A stretch of 46,430 nt of DNA, taken from positions 1 through 46,430 of the IMG/VR virus record IMGVR_UViG_3300024286_000008, one strand, 5' to 3'. The DNA comes from a virus (Duplodnaviria > Caudoviricetes). Shown here piece by piece: positions 1,773 to 13,817 of the stretch. How positions within the stretch are numbered: the stretch's first letter is position 1; each line of letters opens with the position of its first letter. Position numbers and translations under genes: made by a program. The notes beneath the pieces were generated by a model. The model was not told the origin of the DNA and made no database searches. It worked only from the letters and a program-made list of their open reading frames with translations.

Positions 1773-3212
1773 ATGAGTAGCCCAGCCGTTCGACATCTGC
1801 CCCTGGTCCAAAAGTGGCCAGTGTCCCCGAGTGCTATAAAGACCACCCAGGGCTGTGAGCGAAAATGGGTCCTGGACTTTACGGCTGAGAGACTCGAGAC
1901 AGAGAAGCAGAAGCTTGGGACTGAGCTGCATGGGGTGCAACAGGCCTACTTGACCGTAGGCAAGGCCCAGGATCGCAGCACGAAAGTAGGGGCCATGGCC
2001 TTGGCTGGGCTGCCACACATGCCACCCCCCAAGTCTGGCCATGTCGAGACCAAGGCCACGTTGACAAAGGGCGGTATCCAGTATGTGCTAATCATGGACT
2101 ACCACGGGCCCAGCTCTCTGGTCCCTGGTGCCCCACCTGGCATGCCAGCAGTTATCGACCACAAAACCAGTAGCGACCCAGCCCGCTATGGGCTCTGGGG
2201 GCACGATGCTCTGGTGCAGGATCCCCAGGCCCTCATTTATGCAGCCAAGGCCCTGGAGGATGCCCCCACAGCTGACAGGGTATTCCTCCGATGGTTGTAT
2301 TATTGGACAAGCCGAAAATCCAAGGCCTTGCCCTCAGACACCATCATCACCAGGACAGAGGTAGAGGCGTACTGGTGGATACACGTGCACCCCTGGGCCC
2401 AGAGGATAATCGAGCTACAGACCCAGATGCCTGAGGGCAGGACAAATGCCCTAAAAAATAGCAGCCTCATAAACTTTGGAAATAGCCTGCCAGGCAACAC
2501 CCAAGAGTGTGATAAATACAGCGGCTGTCAGCACGCTGAGTCTCGGGGTGGCAGCTGCAGGCTGAGTCCCTCGGAAAAGCTCTCAGCTTGTTTTGAGGGC
2601 CTGGATGATGCCAAGGTCTCTGCTGTAACTAACCCAGTAATTCGACTAAACACGGCACAGAACGCTAACAACTCGGAAAACGGAAAAACCATGGATTTGT
2701 ATTCACGTTTGACACAGGGTCTCGGTACTTCCAACGGTGCTACCCAGGCCACTCAGGCAGCCCACGCAATCGACACAAAAAAGTCAACAGACATAATTAA
2801 TGCCCCTGAAAAGCCAGCCAGTGTGGCAGCCCCGGTCAAAGGGGCAGACCTCCTGGCTCACCTGCAATCTGTGGGAAAGAACGCCACATCCCAGGGAAAA
2901 AACACCACGGCTGTGTCAGTGCCTGCGCAGGCAGCTCCTGTTATTGTTGCTACTCCTACAGCTGAGAAAAAGACCCAAACTCCAGCTCCTGATATACGGG
3001 CAGCTGCTGGAAAGGTAACGGTAGCACCCAAGGTACCGGACGCAGTGCCTACAGGCGTGGTAGCTTCTCCAGCCACGTCTCCAGCTAACCGAGATGAGCT
3101 AGCCCACACACTAGCCTCTCACTTGGCTGGCAACCTGGCTCTGACCCCCACCCAGGTGGCTGCCAGAGCCTACGCAATCGCCGATGCTCTATTGAGTGTG
3201 AAAGCTACTTGA
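1773..3212 (+). CDS. PD-(D/E)XK exonuclease, Cas4/RecB-like, with long Ala/Pro/Thr-rich tail
   Basis: SPSAIK..GCERKW N-terminus, MD...IDHKTS catalytic motif, QALIYA, C-terminal Cys cluster; ATG 1773 preferred over GTG 1683. Confidence 0.8.
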   Translation: MSSPAVRHLPLVQKWPVSPSAIKTTQGCERKWVLDFTAERLETEKQKLGTELHGVQQAYLTVGKAQDRSTKVGAMALAGLPHMPPPKSGHVETKATLTKGGIQYVLIMDYHGPSSLVPGAPPGMPAVIDHKTSSDPARYGLWGHDALVQDPQALIYAAKALEDAPTADRVFLRWLYYWTSRKSKALPSDTIITRTEVEAYWWIHVHPWAQRIIELQTQMPEGRTNALKNSSLINFGNSLPGNTQECDKYSGCQHAESRGGSCRLSPSEKLSACFEGLDDAKVSAVTNPVIRLNTAQNANNSENGKTMDLYSRLTQGLGTSNGATQATQAAHAIDTKKSTDIINAPEKPASVAAPVKGADLLAHLQSVGKNATSQGKNTTAVSVPAQAAPVIVATPTAEKKTQTPAPDIRAAAGKVTVAPKVPDAVPTGVVASPATSPANRDELAHTLASHLAGNLALTPTQVAARAYAIADALLSVKAT

Positions 3213-3249
3213 CAGCTGGGCCACGTGAGGCCCCACCAGGTGCACACCC

Positions 3250-5079
3250 ATGAATGCAGTACCACGGACACCCCCAGGATCCATTGAGGTCCCTGACCAC
3301 TTTGACGCACTCATCGAGAAGTTTGGAGAGCCTAAAGACCCTCGGATCCCTAGAACGATGGAGGATCGATCGGTCCGTGTGTCCCCCGAGTTTCTAAGAA
3401 TCCAGGGGCTCCCTAAACGCCAATGGGCAGAGGCCCATGAGCTGGGCCACTTAATGGCTCTGCTTACCGAGGGCCTTAAGACACCTGGTGGAATGCAGTC
3501 TTTAAGGCCTGTCCAGGCAGCTGCTCTCCGAGAGGCTCACGACTTAAGAGGAGCTCTGCTCCCCATTCGAGTTGGAGGGGGCAAAACCCTGGTCTCTCTT
3601 TTGGCTCCACTGGTGCTGGGAGCTAAACGGCCAGTGCTTTTCGTGCCTGCTGCCCTCCGAGCAAAGACACGTATCGAGGCACGAAAGCTGGCCCTCCATT
3701 GGAGGATCCCAGCCGGAATAAGAGTCTTCTCTTACGAGATACTCTCAAGGGCTGCCCCGGGGTGGCTCGACACCTGCTGTGCAGGACAGCCCCCTGATTT
3801 GATCGTGGCTGATGAGGTCCACAAGCTCAAAAGCCAGGACGCTGGATGCACACGGGCAGTGAGGGCTTTCATGCGAAAGCACAAGCACGGCACCCCCACT
3901 CACGTGCCTTTCGTAGGCATGTCAGGATCGATTACAGCAAGAGGCCTAAAAGACTACAGACATATTCTGGTGTGGTGCCTGGGAGAGCACGCACCAGTGC
4001 CCAGAGATGCCTACGAAGGCCTGCTGTGGGGGCTGGCTCTGGATGAGAAAGTTGCGCCAGAGCAACGGGCAGACCCTGGGCCACTGGAGCAACTGGTGCC
4101 TGGAGAGACCTTTGAGGGAGACGCTCTCTCAAGAGCTCGACAGGCGTTTGGCTCTCGTTTGGTTTCCTCCCCAGGAGTCGTAACGACAAAAGAGGACATT
4201 CCTCAAACCGGTTTGACGATCACTGCCACCCACATGGATGCTCCTCCGAAGATAAGAGAGGCCATTGAGTGGATGCGTCAAAGCTGGTGCACGCCAGACG
4301 ATCACCCTTTCGAGAGTGCGATCCAGCTTTGGCAACACGCCAATGAAATGGCTGGTGGCGGTTTCTATTACGTCTGGGATCCACGTCCCCCCTCCGAATG
4401 GCTGGAGGCTAGGAAAGCTTGGTCAAAGTTTGTTCGTGGCATCCTGGCTCACAGCCAGAGCCTCCACACCCCTTTGCACGTGGTCTCTGCCATCCACTCA
4501 AAGCAAGTGGACGATGGGGGGCTTTACGCTGAGTGGAAAGCAATCGAGCCTACTTTCGAGCCAAATAGCGTCCCTGTCGGAATAGACGACACGACGCTTA
4601 ACTACGCTGCCAAGTGGCTTGAGGAGCATCCAGACACAGGACTCGTTTGGGTGTCGCACAAGTACTCTGGGAGAAGACTCTCGGAGCTCTCTGGAGTGCC
4701 TTACTTTGGAGCCTCTGCGATGGATGTCCGGTCTGGGAAGCTGGTGGAGGAGCACAACGGATCGGCGATCGTCTCCATCGCCAGCTGTCGAGAGGGACGC
4801 AACCTGCAGCGCTGGAATGCCAATCTAGTTCTGGTGCCCCCCACTGTTGGCTCCTGGTGGGAGCAGCTCTTGGGCAGGACTCACAGAGACGGGCAGGAGG
4901 CTGATGAGGTTACTTGCGAGATACCGCTCATGTTGAGGGAGCAATATGAAGCCCTCCAGCAGGCTATCCAGGACGCTGAGTACACCCAGCTAACCACGGG
5001 CATGCCACAAAAGCTGGTGTACGCGACCAAGGACATCCCTGACCTAAGGGAGGCTATCGAGAGTGGGTTTCTGCTGTGA
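3250..5079 (+). CDS. Superfamily 2 (SNF2/DEAD-like) helicase
   Basis: Q motif LRPVQ, GGGKT, DEVH, SGS, GRNLQ, QLLGRTHRDGQ. Confidence 0.9.
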   Translation: MNAVPRTPPGSIEVPDHFDALIEKFGEPKDPRIPRTMEDRSVRVSPEFLRIQGLPKRQWAEAHELGHLMALLTEGLKTPGGMQSLRPVQAAALREAHDLRGALLPIRVGGGKTLVSLLAPLVLGAKRPVLFVPAALRAKTRIEARKLALHWRIPAGIRVFSYEILSRAAPGWLDTCCAGQPPDLIVADEVHKLKSQDAGCTRAVRAFMRKHKHGTPTHVPFVGMSGSITARGLKDYRHILVWCLGEHAPVPRDAYEGLLWGLALDEKVAPEQRADPGPLEQLVPGETFEGDALSRARQAFGSRLVSSPGVVTTKEDIPQTGLTITATHMDAPPKIREAIEWMRQSWCTPDDHPFESAIQLWQHANEMAGGGFYYVWDPRPPSEWLEARKAWSKFVRGILAHSQSLHTPLHVVSAIHSKQVDDGGLYAEWKAIEPTFEPNSVPVGIDDTTLNYAAKWLEEHPDTGLVWVSHKYSGRRLSELSGVPYFGASAMDVRSGKLVEEHNGSAIVSIASCREGRNLQRWNANLVLVPPTVGSWWEQLLGRTHRDGQEADEVTCEIPLMLREQYEALQQAIQDAEYTQLTTGMPQKLVYATKDIPDLREAIESGFLL

Positions 5080-9343: not shown

Positions 9344-10207
9344 ATGGCAAAGCCTGGTCTGTGTAAGGCACGCCGCTGCAAGTTTGTGGTGGTCTCGGAT
9401 GGGCTTTGTGAGAAGCATCTGGCCGAATGGAATGCAGCCGGGCAGCCTCCCTTTGCCACCACGGGCAGCGCCATCGTGAGCACAAACCTGCTGAGCCACG
9501 GCACCCAGGAGGGCCTGGCTGAGGAACGTGTCAACGCTGAAAAATCCTTGTCCCTGATTGAGACCTTTGAGATCACATCTCAGGAGACCATGGACATGGC
9601 TGGGCAGTTTCTGTCTGGTGTACGTGAGGCTGGGGAGGGCCTGACTCGGAGGATGGAGGAGCAGCTAGCTCCCCTGAAAGCCAGTGAGGAGTCAATCCTG
9701 GCTGTCTTTGGGCCTCTCAAACAAATTTACGCCTCCTGTGAGAGCAGCCTGAGGGCCAAAATCAACGGGCATATCCGTAGGCAGCAGGAGCTCCAGGATG
9801 CAGCCCGGATGGAGGTAGAGGCAGCTGGTGGCTCTGTCGACTCCAACACCCTGACCATTGCGCATGGCATTGAAAACGTGGCCCTGCCCGTGGGCATGGG
9901 TGTGCGTGAGACCTGGTCCTATGAGGTCACAGACGAGTCAGCCCTGAGGCGTGCAGCATCTGTGGGGGAGCTACGCAAGCGCATTGTGGAGCTGGGCAGG
10001 GAGGAGGAGCTGGAGGGCTTTCTCCAGGCAGTGCAGGAGCTGATGGGAGTCGAGACACACGTCTCCACTGCCATGCTGGCTGTCAACCATAAGCACCTGG
10101 CAGCAGTGGCACGGTCCCTCAAGACAGAGGCCAACATCCCAGGCGTGAGAGTCTTCTCCGAGACCACAGCCACAGCCCCGAGACGCAACGGCAACGCTAC
10201 GGCATAG
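9344..10207 (+). CDS. Coiled-coil phage protein with N-terminal Cys/His motif and IPGV-type C-terminus
   Basis: CxxxxC...LCEKH, long helical middle, ANIPGVRVF; ATG 9344 (track start TTG 9323). Confidence 0.7.
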   Translation: MAKPGLCKARRCKFVVVSDGLCEKHLAEWNAAGQPPFATTGSAIVSTNLLSHGTQEGLAEERVNAEKSLSLIETFEITSQETMDMAGQFLSGVREAGEGLTRRMEEQLAPLKASEESILAVFGPLKQIYASCESSLRAKINGHIRRQQELQDAARMEVEAAGGSVDSNTLTIAHGIENVALPVGMGVRETWSYEVTDESALRRAASVGELRKRIVELGREEELEGFLQAVQELMGVETHVSTAMLAVNHKHLAAVARSLKTEANIPGVRVFSETTATAPRRNGNATA

Positions 10208-10347
10208 AGGCCAGCCCGTGCCACCCAGGGCCAGCAAATAGCCTGGCCCCATACGGTCCCAGTAAAAGCACCAGACCAAAGATAGAAAATAGAAAATGGC
10301 GAAAGATGCAAACCTGGAAACCCGGGCATGGGACCCCATGAACTAGC

Positions 10348-10728
10348 ATGGACTATCCACCAGGTGAGGTAGTTCCAGGCAGTTTTGATCACAGGTCTGG
10401 CGATTGCCCCACGCATGGGAGCAACGTTGTATTTGCCCGTCCTGCCCGTTCCACCGTTGGCTTTCAATGCGTGGCCTGTTTATTGTCTGCTGTGGTGGCC
10501 AAAGCTCCAGCACTCCGGGCAGCACCTGTCAGCCATGCCATGTTTATCAGGCTGACAACTAACAGAGCTCTACCAGGCAATTATGGAAGGTTGTCAGCCG
10601 CTAAGATCGGGGCTGCGATGGATGCCTTTGCAAATATCCAGCTTGCCCTATCCGAGGATGCTGACTGCCCTGACAGGTTTACCGCCACCAATGGCCACCA
10701 CCAGGACTGGTATCCAGATGGCAAATAA
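10348..10728 (+). CDS. Hypothetical protein with possible Zn ribbon
   Basis: CPTHG...CVAC; fills the gap and overlaps the next start. Confidence 0.55.
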   Translation: MDYPPGEVVPGSFDHRSGDCPTHGSNVVFARPARSTVGFQCVACLLSAVVAKAPALRAAPVSHAMFIRLTTNRALPGNYGRLSAAKIGAAMDAFANIQLALSEDADCPDRFTATNGHHQDWYPDGK

Positions 10729-11002
10729 GCCCAGGCGTAGTGCCCACGATCTATTTGACCGGCTGGCAGCACTCGAGAAAAAGCTGGCTGAGGTCACTAC
10801 AGCCCAGGGCCCAGCACTGCCCAAACTTCTAACAGTCCAGGAGCTGGCTGACCTGCTACGTACCACCCCCAAGGCTGTCCGATTGATGCGAGACAAGGGG
10901 CAGCTCCCAGAGCCCCTGGACATTGGCAGTAAACGGCTGTTGTGGCGTGAGGCAGTTGTGATAGCCTGGTTGGGCCATACGGAATTGCGGGCAGGGAAGT
11001 AA
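10718..11002 (+). CDS. xis: Excisionase / AlpA-MerR-like HTH protein
   Basis: LLTVQELADLLRTTPKAV...GQLPEPLDIG.KRLLWR; sits upstream of integrase; ATG 10718. Confidence 0.82.
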   Translation: MANKPRRSAHDLFDRLAALEKKLAEVTTAQGPALPKLLTVQELADLLRTTPKAVRLMRDKGQLPEPLDIGSKRLLWREAVVIAWLGHTELRAGK

Positions 11003-11009
11003 CGCCGCA

Positions 11010-11222
11010 ATGACAGTCAAGATAAGACCAAGTAAGGATAACAAGAGCTGGGAATACGACATCCACGTCACAAAGCTGGATGGAACAAAAATAAGGGAGC
11101 GTCGCAAGATTCCTGGGGTTAGTAGCCGATACCATGCCCAGCGATGGGCAGAGGAACGTGAGTATCAGTTACTGATACAGATTCTGGGATACACCCCCAA
11201 GGACTCTGGGGGTGCCAAATGA
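11010..11222 (+). CDS. Stand-alone paralog of the integrase N-terminal arm-binding domain (70 aa)
   Basis: About 31/55 identities to the integrase N-terminus by manual alignment; intact ORF; ATGA overlap with int. Confidence 0.85.
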   Translation: MTVKIRPSKDNKSWEYDIHVTKLDGTKIRERRKIPGVSSRYHAQRWAEEREYQLLIQILGYTPKDSGGAK

Positions 11223-12397
11223 CCGTCATAGTCAGGCCCTACAAAGATACGAAAGCCTGGGAGTATGACATTATCTTTGAGCTGCCAGACGGCACAGAGA
11301 TACGTGAGAGACGCAAGTCCAAGATAAAATCCAAGTCAGGCACACAGGACTGGGCAGAGAAGAGAGAGCAGAAGTTGTTAGCTGAGGCAATGAAGCCAAA
11401 ACCTGTCGAGCGTAAGACAGGCCCAGTACTAATAGACCAAGTCCCGGAATACATACAAACCTGCAAAACAAATAGACTCAAGCCAAGTACAATTAGGGGT
11501 AAAATAAGCAGTTTCAAAAAATGGATTGCACCACTGGAGAAACCAGAAAAGCCACTGCCAGACCATGCCCTCACCAATGTCCCACTAATGGACATCACCA
11601 CGGGTAAGGTCAACATCCTCAAAGAGGCCCTGACGTCCCTGGGGGCAAGTGCTGCCAATAACGTGCTGGGGGACTTGTCTGCCCTGCTACATCAGGCAAT
11701 CGAGGAGGATATAATTGAGGTAATGCCGTGCAGGATAAAGCTGTTTCCTGAGCTCAGGTCTGAGGAGACAGAGGCAGCATTTTATGAGCACGACGTATTC
11801 CGCAAACTGCAGGCAGCTGCACAGGATGAGCACAAAGCCATATTGCTCCTCTTGGGAGCACATGCAGGGCTGAGGGCTGGGGAGATTGTGGGGCTGGAGT
11901 GGTCAGACATAAACTGGGACCTCAGACTCATCACTGTCCAGAGGGCTGTGTGGCAGGGCATCGTGGGGCTACCTAAAAGTAACAAAATACGTCGTGTGCC
12001 AATGTCAGGGACTCTCTACCAGCGATTGCGAGCCTACCGTCACCTGAGGGGGCCACGTGTTCTGTACCAGGCTGACGGTAGCCCCGTGACAAGGGCTGTC
12101 CTGTCGGACTGGTTGGCTGACTGTGAGCAGGCAGCAGGCTTGCCTCCTGATGGGCACGTACACCGCCTTAGACACACGTTCTGCAGTCACCTGGCCCTGG
12201 CTGGGGTGTTTCCACACGTAATCCAACGTCTGGCAGGACATCACAGCCTCATCATCACAGGACGCTACCTACACCTGTCCCCCGACAGTATGGAGAAAGC
12301 TGTCTCCAGGCTGGATGCAGCCAATGCCCAGCAGCAGGACGCTCGTGGTGATGGAGATATCCTGGAAACGGCTTTGAGCAAGTTGGCAACTGGTTGA
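11219..12397 (+). CDS. int: Tyrosine recombinase / phage integrase
   Basis: GLRAGE, PKS, HRLRHT, LAGH and ITGRY catalytic motifs; N-terminal arm-binding and core-binding domains. Confidence 0.96.
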   Translation: MTVIVRPYKDTKAWEYDIIFELPDGTEIRERRKSKIKSKSGTQDWAEKREQKLLAEAMKPKPVERKTGPVLIDQVPEYIQTCKTNRLKPSTIRGKISSFKKWIAPLEKPEKPLPDHALTNVPLMDITTGKVNILKEALTSLGASAANNVLGDLSALLHQAIEEDIIEVMPCRIKLFPELRSEETEAAFYEHDVFRKLQAAAQDEHKAILLLLGAHAGLRAGEIVGLEWSDINWDLRLITVQRAVWQGIVGLPKSNKIRRVPMSGTLYQRLRAYRHLRGPRVLYQADGSPVTRAVLSDWLADCEQAAGLPPDGHVHRLRHTFCSHLALAGVFPHVIQRLAGHHSLIITGRYLHLSPDSMEKAVSRLDAANAQQQDARGDGDILETALSKLATG

Positions 12398-12586
12398 TTT
12401 GATTGACTTATAACGCCTGGTGGTTTAGGGACACCCCCTAATAGTTACTGCGAAAGAGTCTCGCAATTCCGCATGGTTGGCAAGGTAACCATTGGAGACT
12501 ACTCTCAAAACCACCAGGCGTTTGACCTTCCAGATACTCCAGATGCCTCTACATTCCTCCCCCTGTGTGGAGAGATTCTGGAGAAG
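12352..12586. other. Probable attP region
   Basis: Imperfect direct repeats TGGAGATATCCTGGAAA (12352) and TGGAGAGATTCTGGAGA (12568); inverted TCCAGAT pair ~12530-12544; perfect IHF consensus AATCAAccagTTG on - strand 12387-12399; lies at the end of int. Confidence 0.6.
12412..12522. repeat. 15-bp perfect inverted repeat enclosing four small hairpins (candidate structured RNA or cruciform)
   Basis: AACGCCTGGTGGTTT 12412-12426 and AAACCACCAGGCGTT 12508-12522. Confidence 0.8.
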
Positions 12587-12635
12587 CCAGGCCAGGCTGG
12601 GTGTCCTCCCAGGAATGTCAATACCTGGCTGCAGC

Positions 12636-13817
12636 TCAGTACCATACCAGGGCCTCCATTGCAGGCACGGATGGGCCACCACCACCACCACCAGTGCCAG
12701 CAAACGTTACCCCCGTGTTGCCTGACTCGAGCCACACATAGGACACAAGCCCAGTAGGCGGATTCCACCCTATCTCGGTAAAGAGGACATCTGCAGGGAT
12801 GGCAGTGCCCACAGAGCCCTCTCCAGTGCGTCCACTGCTAGCCGTGGTGCTATTGACACCGATACCGATCCTGACTTTGACAGCCGTGGCATTGCTGGAG
12901 CTGGCACTGGATACAGCGATCACACGTGTAGCATTACCCCCGTCTGCCCCCCCGATGCCTGTGACCACATCGATCTGTGCATTGCTGTTGCCTGCCAGCT
13001 GCCTAAAAGCAGTGGACGTATAGGCATAGCTGCCACTGGGTCCCAGGATCTGGAGGGCCAAAGGTTTCCTGTTGTCCACATTCCAATAGTCGCAACTGAT
13101 GAGCTGGCCGTCGTCTAAAAACGCCCCAGTAATAAACCGGTAGCTGGTGGCAGTCCTGGGCCTCACGGTGCCAAGGTAGCGTCTGGTCACATCCCCAGAT
13201 TTTACCCACACCCCCCTCAGTTTGGCCAAAGCCACAGCCGGATTCCTGGAGGAGGATGAGCTCCAGTTAGCGACATCGAGGGCAACGGCTGTCCCGTTGT
13301 AGTATGCAAAAACGTCAAATGGCAGGTTGGCTGTCCTGCCTGCTAACGTGTACAGAACACCACTGGCTGCAAAGGTTGTCCACACCCCCCCATAAATTAG
13401 AGATATACGGTCACTCTTGACAGGTGCCAAATAAATCGTGGTGAGGGCTGTACCATCTGCATGTGTAGTGTCCGTGGGAGTGCTGGAGAGACGAAAGCCG
13501 TTTACCCCAGGGTCCACAGTGGCTGTCGACTCTGGGTGCTGGTGATCGTCTCTCGACAGTAAAGAACTCGCGCCCGGAGCTCCAGACAAGGACGGGGGCA
13601 GTGGCGTAGCGTCTGAGGCCAGGCTGGTGCCTGTGGAAAAGTTGGCCTCCAGGCTCCACTCACCATCGATCTTTACCCAGACGTTGGCAGTGTCGAGGTC
13701 AAGGTAGGTGTCACCAGTGGAGCCCAGGGCTGGCAGAGGATCCCCATGGTCAGACCAGAACGCTGGGCCATTGCTACCGATGGGGGCCACGTCTATGCCA
13801 CGCCTCCTCTGGTTCAT
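12636..13817 (-). CDS. Tail fibre / receptor-binding-like protein
   Basis: GSTGDTYLDLDTANVWVK..GEW fibre motif, Gly/Ser/Thr-rich beta sequence, last gene of the tail operon. Confidence 0.7.
   Translation of the reverse strand: MNQRRRGIDVAPIGSNGPAFWSDHGDPLPALGSTGDTYLDLDTANVWVKIDGEWSLEANFSTGTSLASDATPLPPSLSGAPGASSLLSRDDHQHPESTATVDPGVNGFRLSSTPTDTTHADGTALTTIYLAPVKSDRISLIYGGVWTTFAASGVLYTLAGRTANLPFDVFAYYNGTAVALDVANWSSSSSRNPAVALAKLRGVWVKSGDVTRRYLGTVRPRTATSYRFITGAFLDDGQLISCDYWNVDNRKPLALQILGPSGSYAYTSTAFRQLAGNSNAQIDVVTGIGGADGGNATRVIAVSSASSSNATAVKVRIGIGVNSTTASSGRTGEGSVGTAIPADVLFTEIGWNPPTGLVSYVWLESGNTGVTFAGTGGGGGGPSVPAMEALVWY

Follow-up and report, generated by a model that had tools for sequence, protein, structure and literature searches.

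Why would a phage that encodes an intact tyrosine integrase, complete with its own arm-binding domain, carry a free-standing relative of that domain in a separate gene just upstream? The question is raised by a tailed phage assembled as a single contig, which was analyzed at its full length (46,430 nucleotides, hereafter the window). Terminase, portal, sheath and tape measure genes lie on the minus strand of this genome, and primase, helicase, PolA, methylase and resolvase-like genes precede, on the plus strand, the following three genes:

10718..11002, plus strand: xis-like gene, 94 aa from the ATG at 10718, with an N-terminal helical extension and an HTH_17 domain
11010..11222, plus strand: stand-alone arm-type domain, 70 aa, basic (pI 9.9), without a core-binding or catalytic domain
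11219..12397, plus strand: tyrosine integrase, 392 aa, intact, with its own arm domain (PF00589, E 9.5e-25)

The runs containing this stretch are soil or rhizosphere metagenomes, with no RNA dataset among them. The xis-like ORF matches HTH_17 in Pfam (E 2.2e-6) and the excisionase family PHROG 66 (E 1.5e-6), and the integrase residues R219, K253, H315, R318, H341 and Y350 are invariant among 28 aligned sequences. The best match of the integrase among INPHARED phages reaches 27%, and the closest bacterial integrases (~40% identity) belong mostly to Acidobacteriota and Myxococcota genomes. As the preliminary description of this DNA had it, the 70-aa ORF sits between xis and int, and its TGA overlaps the int ATG (ATGA). 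On the other side of the module, a 126-aa Cys-containing orphan (10348-10728), conserved at 62-95% in relatives and without a match in Pfam or PHROG, overlaps the xis start with its end.

The resemblance of the small ORF to the integrase N-terminus, which had been noticed by eye, is borne out by alignment (32 of 63 positions identical, E 7e-17). Among 1101 stop-to-stop frames the small ORF is the only non-self match to Int residues 1-70 below E 0.4, the next best having 0.43. A profile search with the small ORF gave 302 matches at E<=0.001; in the 150 of these that were listed, its own cluster and that of the neighbouring integrase lead, and the rest are mostly integrase N-termini. Pfam and PHROGs assigned the small protein to no family and detected no nuclease domain in it, and Pfam likewise found no arm family in 15 aligned N-termini; an Atlas feature search ranked Arm-DNA-bind_4 first (0.95, with 158 of 256 features shared with the small protein), and the structure rows returned by Atlas are mostly integrase N-termini. 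The AlphaFold2 model (pLDDT 81) predicts strands at residues 2-7, 14-21 and 27-34, a helix at 40-58 and a disordered tail, which is the beta-beta-beta-alpha fold of arm domains. In a structure search, lambda Int (1z1b, residues 14-69; Z 4.4, rmsd 2.9, 54 aligned) appeared at rank 11 and HPI (3jtz) at Z 4.1, both tied with unrelated folds; Foldseek gave nothing at E<=0.001, and the best hit of a three-allele profile among PDB sequences had E 0.17. Judged from its sequence, the small ORF is homologous to the integrase arm-binding domain. Other identities were considered and set aside. The ORF is not a tyrosine integrase, as it stops at 70 aa, after the helix and a short tail, without core-binding or catalytic (RKHRHY) domains; it is not a Xis/Cox-type factor by fold, the HTH belonging instead to the upstream 94-aa ORF; it is not an arm-domain GIY-YIG nuclease, the nuclease domain being absent; and it is not the split Int(N) of an integrase with att inside its gene, int being whole with its own arm domain kept.

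Homolog searches returned four 70-aa alleles that form a single 90% cluster and, at 64%, a 72-aa allele. A metagenome scan found five loci:

L002: small-ORF allele identical to that of the window
L003: small-ORF allele with 97% identity
L004: small-ORF allele with 94% identity, on a contig that ends at codon 64
L005: small-ORF allele with 65% identity, 72 aa
L006: plain integrase

Syntenic homologs, which the preliminary description had proposed to look for, thus exist at 97, 94 and 65% identity. In both L003 and L005 the small gene follows xis and precedes int, with an ATGA overlap at each of its two borders; the overlap of xis with the small gene is also present in L004, and the window-type and L005 alleles end 70-72 codons in, with the ATGA overlap on int. 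The small protein had no tblastn match in INPHARED phages or PLSDB plasmids, and scans of viral contigs with it and with P0285, P0206 and P0286 gave no locus. Several short profile matches (P0131-P0136 and others) look like truncated or frameshifted integrases, P0160, P0285 and P0273 cluster with longer integrase forms, and a double match in L124 is a frameshifted int; the short matches come without genomic context and were left out of the homolog count. A total of 86 entries contain a complete family integrase preceded by 400 nt or more of sequence, one phage being represented twice (L001 and L007); four of them have the small gene (the window, L002, L003 and L005).

Its absence from close relatives is clean. 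Locus L001 is syntenic with the window (int 74% identical, upstream gene 93%), and there xis runs into int across a junction that matches the start of the small gene in the window. Likewise, in a 278-nt contig of run X16 (depth 6.5) the end of xis is followed directly by the start of int; since its int differs at only 9 positions in 102 nt, a relative closer than L001 also lacks the small gene. The xis-like gene is kept in L001, L003, L004 and L005. The small gene is an optional ATG-to-ATG unit of one phage clade, and the three-component switch suggested earlier is not supported as an obligatory one, given these direct xis-int junctions: the small gene would be a tuner and is not a required third component of the switch. 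In L001 an additional 87-aa ORF (3054-3317) stands between a 293-aa and a 133-aa gene, with none there in the window; this position is another variable slot beside xis.

Around the end of int lie the following elements, listed together with one at the end of xis:

12352..12369, plus strand: tandem arm-type repeat of period 11 at the int 3' end, where it encodes the GDILET motif of the family
12412..12522, no strand assigned: attP-like symmetric region with an outer inverted repeat (12412-12431/12503-12522) and its centre near 12467
12568..12585, plus strand: second tandem arm-type repeat, offset from the first by 216 nt and in the same orientation
10975..10989, plus strand: box of 15 nt in the 3' end of xis, which repeats 12462-12476 in inverted form with 14/15 matching

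The two tandem repeats, already pointed out in the preliminary description, are the only tandem copies of their pattern in the window. They lie on either side of the attP-like region, where two gene ends converge, and their offsets from the int stop are -45 and +171 in all four loci compared (window, L001, L003 and L005). The nested inverted repeats of 12412-12522 are kept in the same number of loci (4/4) and fold strongly (z -4.9), both strands folding alike, so that the symmetry may be read as one of RNA or of DNA; searches of this region with Rfam at gathering level and for tRNA gave no match. A minus-strand sequence at 12387..12399, with the same offset in 4/4 loci and at most one mismatch, matches the IHF consensus. 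Across the bacterial members of the family, the tandem-repeat motif at the int 3' end was present in 57 of 74 loci and in none of 74 control stretches, the conserved GDILET tail of the protein being this DNA repeat in translation, and in many of 30 bacterial loci inspected by eye a tRNA- or tmRNA-like sequence follows the motif. The window, unlike most family loci, has no tRNA or tmRNA fragment after int, and contains 0 tRNA and 0 tmRNA genes. The two tandem repeats of the window have the appearance of genuine arm sites.

Variation within the family bears on what reads these repeats. We surveyed residue 15 of the arm domain at 89 loci, and at 60 of these both the repeat and the residue could be assigned to a class. 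The GGAGAC class of repeats occurs in 54 of the 89 (Myxococcota and Acidobacteriota genomes and phages), and a second class is GGCAAC. Residue 15 was E in 52/52 loci of the GGAGAC class and something other than E (H, Q, M or I) in 8/8 of the GGCAAC class. On a tree of the remaining protein, residue and repeat class each changed 7 times, and the independent pairs agreed in 5 of 5 cases (p 0.06). This covariation supports the view that the arm domain reads the repeats. Both small proteins carry E15, which matches the GGAGA-class repeats of the phage, and the P0286 lineage has Q; because E is already the majority residue in the family (86%), E15 in the small proteins is modest evidence.

The box at the end of xis is a separate observation. 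Its inverted match to the attP-like centre extends over 15-17 nt with one mismatch in the window, L001 and L003, which are the top three of 71 loci tested (the null reaching mostly <=13). The box at 10975-10989 is invariant in 5/5 aligned loci, and the differences seen in the L005 xis-end box would still permit G-U pairing on the plus strand. Scanning for the pattern of the box gave five loci, one of them (L168) being L001 again and the other four unrelated. The two copies could bind the same protein in autoregulation, or they could pair over a distance as RNA and thereby release the start codon that follows xis. Another short likeness links the small-ORF tail (11191-11198) with the attP-like region (12431-12438), which have an 8-nt stretch in common that may be due to chance or may be the trace of an att-like break point.

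The reading that we favour, tentatively, is that the small protein is a non-catalytic competitor for arm sites, co-translated with Xis and Int, which damps assembly of the attP intasome. In lambda, Int residues 1-64 bind the arm sites as a separate domain, and the folded attP requires Int on arm and core both (PMC9791396). By analogy, the small protein would bind the two tandem TGGAGA repeats on either side of the attP-like region and compete there with the full integrase; arm sites filled without bridging to core sites would damp intasome assembly, as expected from lambda, and this in turn would likely limit re-integration of replicating genomes. The xis, small and int genes appear to stand last in a series of replication genes with the same orientation, and within the trio stop and start codons overlap or adjoin, which suggests that the small protein would be produced together with Xis, and earlier than Int, in lytic growth. 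The direction of its effect on recombination is our guess. A complex prediction of Int with the small protein (score 0.00) speaks neither for nor against binding. It is possible, if somewhat doubtful, that the free arm domain serves as a second directionality factor by sitting on the att arm sites as a dominant-negative or biasing subunit, so that Int, Xis and mini-arm would act here and plain Int and Xis in the sister phages. Repression from attP, another role that had been suggested, is unlikely, as the repeats sit between converging gene ends; there is also no tandem copy near the xis start.

Between the window-type and L005 alleles, dN/dS was 0.29-0.40 by NG86 (dS 0.9-1.1) and omega was 0.17-0.24 by codon maximum likelihood (p 8e-6 to 3e-4), as compared with 0.12-0.16 for the Int N-terminus and 0.30 for xis; close alleles gave omega 0.26 (p 0.14) and 0.43 (p 0.36), which are not significant, and every deep comparison depends on the one L005 allele. 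The small ORF is under purifying selection between the two deep alleles, at values well under 1, which argues against the remnant of a displaced integrase that the preliminary description had contemplated. We rejected a decaying integrase pseudogene on these grounds (p<=3e-4), the alleles being intact at 70 and 72 aa, and such an omega indicates that the ORF is not a freshly decaying stub. The residues conserved in the family (R6, P7, W14, E15, D17, I18, G25, R29, E30, R31, W46, R50 and E51) are retained in both alleles; Y8, conserved at 76%, is replaced by S in both, and H19 is also shared by the two. Identity between the alleles was 25/33 at family-conserved columns versus 13/23 at others (p 0.11, no significant enrichment). 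In the same phages, divergence (t) was 1.83 for the small-ORF alleles, 0.38 for int and 0.73 for xis; as the small-ORF alleles are far more diverged than their neighbours, the selection signal could predate the stand-alone state.

The word copy, as applied to the small ORF in the preliminary description, overstates the relation, as the ORF is no recent copy of the adjacent int. Synonymous sites between the two are saturated (pS 0.82-0.93), and in pairwise scores the window allele is as similar to other family integrases (P0006, P0012 and P0286) as to the neighbouring Int, which together argue against recent duplication. The best full-length match among 1.84 billion representatives was the neighbour's own cluster (67 bits), and none of the full-length integrases fetched, including the best 120 Int homologs, was close to either allele. 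In trees of 60-64 alignment columns, the small proteins formed one clade (99/94; 51 of 206 domains) whose sister, not firmly supported (92/74), was a group of ten integrases including the cognate ones; a second tree, of 39 rows, placed them with a foreign frameshifted integrase, P0286 (96/94). In the AU test, a clade with the cognate integrases (p 0.36) and a clade with the P0172 fusion (p 0.36) were both retained. The arm domain of this family also occurs fused to T5orf172/GIY-YIG-like nucleases, in P0206 (T5orf172, E 7.7e-7) and P0172 (Atlas, 0.91), each on a contig of ~1 kb. Among 229 proteins, the tail of P0172 was the best match to that of the window allele and fifth for the L005 allele; neither fusion is sister to the small proteins. 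The origin of the small ORF is old, and an old duplication, a displaced integrase or an arm-GIY-YIG nuclease minus its nuclease are the candidate sources.

Two of these sources invite a different account of the gene, in which the ORF is a stub whose protein does little and whose open frame passes ribosomes from xis to int, opening a hairpin at the int start. Two predicted hairpins are relevant:

10984..11011, plus strand: predicted mRNA hairpin at the start of the post-xis gene, which is the small ORF here and int in L001
11191..11214, plus strand: 8-bp hairpin predicted by folding in the small-ORF tail, over the G-rich stretch preceding the int ATG

Such a relay would suit a unit that runs from ATG to ATG and fills the slot where int begins in L001 and X16, and the hairpin covering the int start region is found with both alleles, positions -15 to -5 of the int ATG having an unpaired probability of 0.23-0.32. 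However, in the window neither hairpin has an energy better than that of shuffled sequences (z -0.76, and -0.48 for the upstream one, which has z -3.56 in L001). As to a stub, frameshifted and truncated integrases are common in this family, one tree joins the small ORF to the lineage of P0286, and the nuclease fusions, with the tail of P0172, offer a second source; against it stand an omega of ~0.2 at a synonymous distance near 1 with no stop or frameshift, the lack of a close full-length integrase beyond the 67 bits of the neighbour's cluster, the fifth rank of P0172 with the L005 tail, and the nucleases not being sister to the small proteins. We consider this account rather unlikely.

Three further roles are less probable than this. 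As a positive cofactor, the free arm domain would join the Int arm domains on the tandem repeats, where mixed occupancy could occur, and stimulate one direction of recombination. An engineered binary lambda Int recombines with N64 supplied separately, but unmodified lambda N- and C-terminal domains do not recombine as separate chains (PMC9791396), and the archaeal precedent of SNJ2, which raises integration with two small co-transcribed proteins (PMC5861418), has to be weighed against an Int that here has its own arm domain and sister phages that do without the small gene; we think it improbable. Quite improbable, in our view, is a weapon against competitors that would mask the arm sites of other elements in the host and block their excision or integration: the GGAGAC-class repeats that it would target are common to 54/89 family loci, and patchy presence and fast allele turnover would fit a conflict gene, but the phage's own repeats are of the same class, so that the protein would hit its own phage, and placement within the xis-int unit points to a role in cis. 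The least probable is that the domain was repurposed as a transcription regulator and now has another target in phage or host. The shared Y8S and H19 and the repression by KplE1 IntS of its own gene via attL sites (PMC2951348) could point to this, but tandem arm repeats are found nowhere in the window except at 12352 and 12568, between converging gene ends, and sigma-70-like promoters in 10100-12800 numbered 0 versus 1.7 expected.

The competitor that we favour can be set beside known systems. Its closest counterpart is the arm domain of heterobivalent integrases (lambda Int 1-64 and the IntTn916 type), with which the small ORF shares homology, a predicted fold of three strands and one helix, the pattern described for IntTn916-type arm domains (PMC8138268), and an attP-like region flanked by tandem repeats. 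The datasets of that study may classify the present integrase family. In contrast to lambda, where the free N64 is an engineered fragment (PMC9791396), the small ORF is a gene of its own before an intact int. The uoi-int pair of Myxococcus phage Mx8 likewise has an HTH gene beside int, and the integrase relatives found here occur in genomes of Myxococcota and Acidobacteriota; however, attP of Mx8 lies inside int and its use swaps the Int C-terminus (PMC6070905), whereas here the attP-like region follows the int stop and an extra arm-domain gene precedes int. The pleolipovirus SNJ2 resembles the window in that two small genes, Orf2 and Orf3, are co-transcribed with int and absent from some relatives, but they encode a coiled-coil and a MarR-like winged helix in an archaeal family (PMC5861418), and the small ORF is an integrase domain. 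Archaeal suicidal integrases also yield a free N-terminal piece, Int(N), which arises when integration splits the gene at att (PMC8371274), whereas the window has an undivided int, and its free arm domain is encoded by a separate gene under selection. The fusions P0206 and P0172 use the arm domain of the same family outside an integrase; the small protein differs in lacking the nuclease domain and is not their sister. In KplE1, att overlaps the int promoter (PMC2951348), whereas the repeats here lie between converging gene ends. The arrangement xis, free arm domain, int was not found in the literature searched, which consisted mostly of open-access articles.

Directionality control of arm-binding integrases is credited to Xis-type DNA benders and host factors. 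If the favoured reading is true, titration of arm sites by a naturally occurring free arm domain would be a control principle of another kind, one to which only engineered lambda fragments are known to have come close, and integrase tools could gain from it an inhibitor that can be tuned. Its scope is a single small phage clade in which the gene is dispensable and its function proposed; since near-identical modules occur with and without the small gene, the clade offers built-in controls. More widely, the correlate between residue 15 and the repeats across ~60 loci is a testable recognition rule for a large, unstudied family of integrases in Myxococcota and Acidobacteriota.
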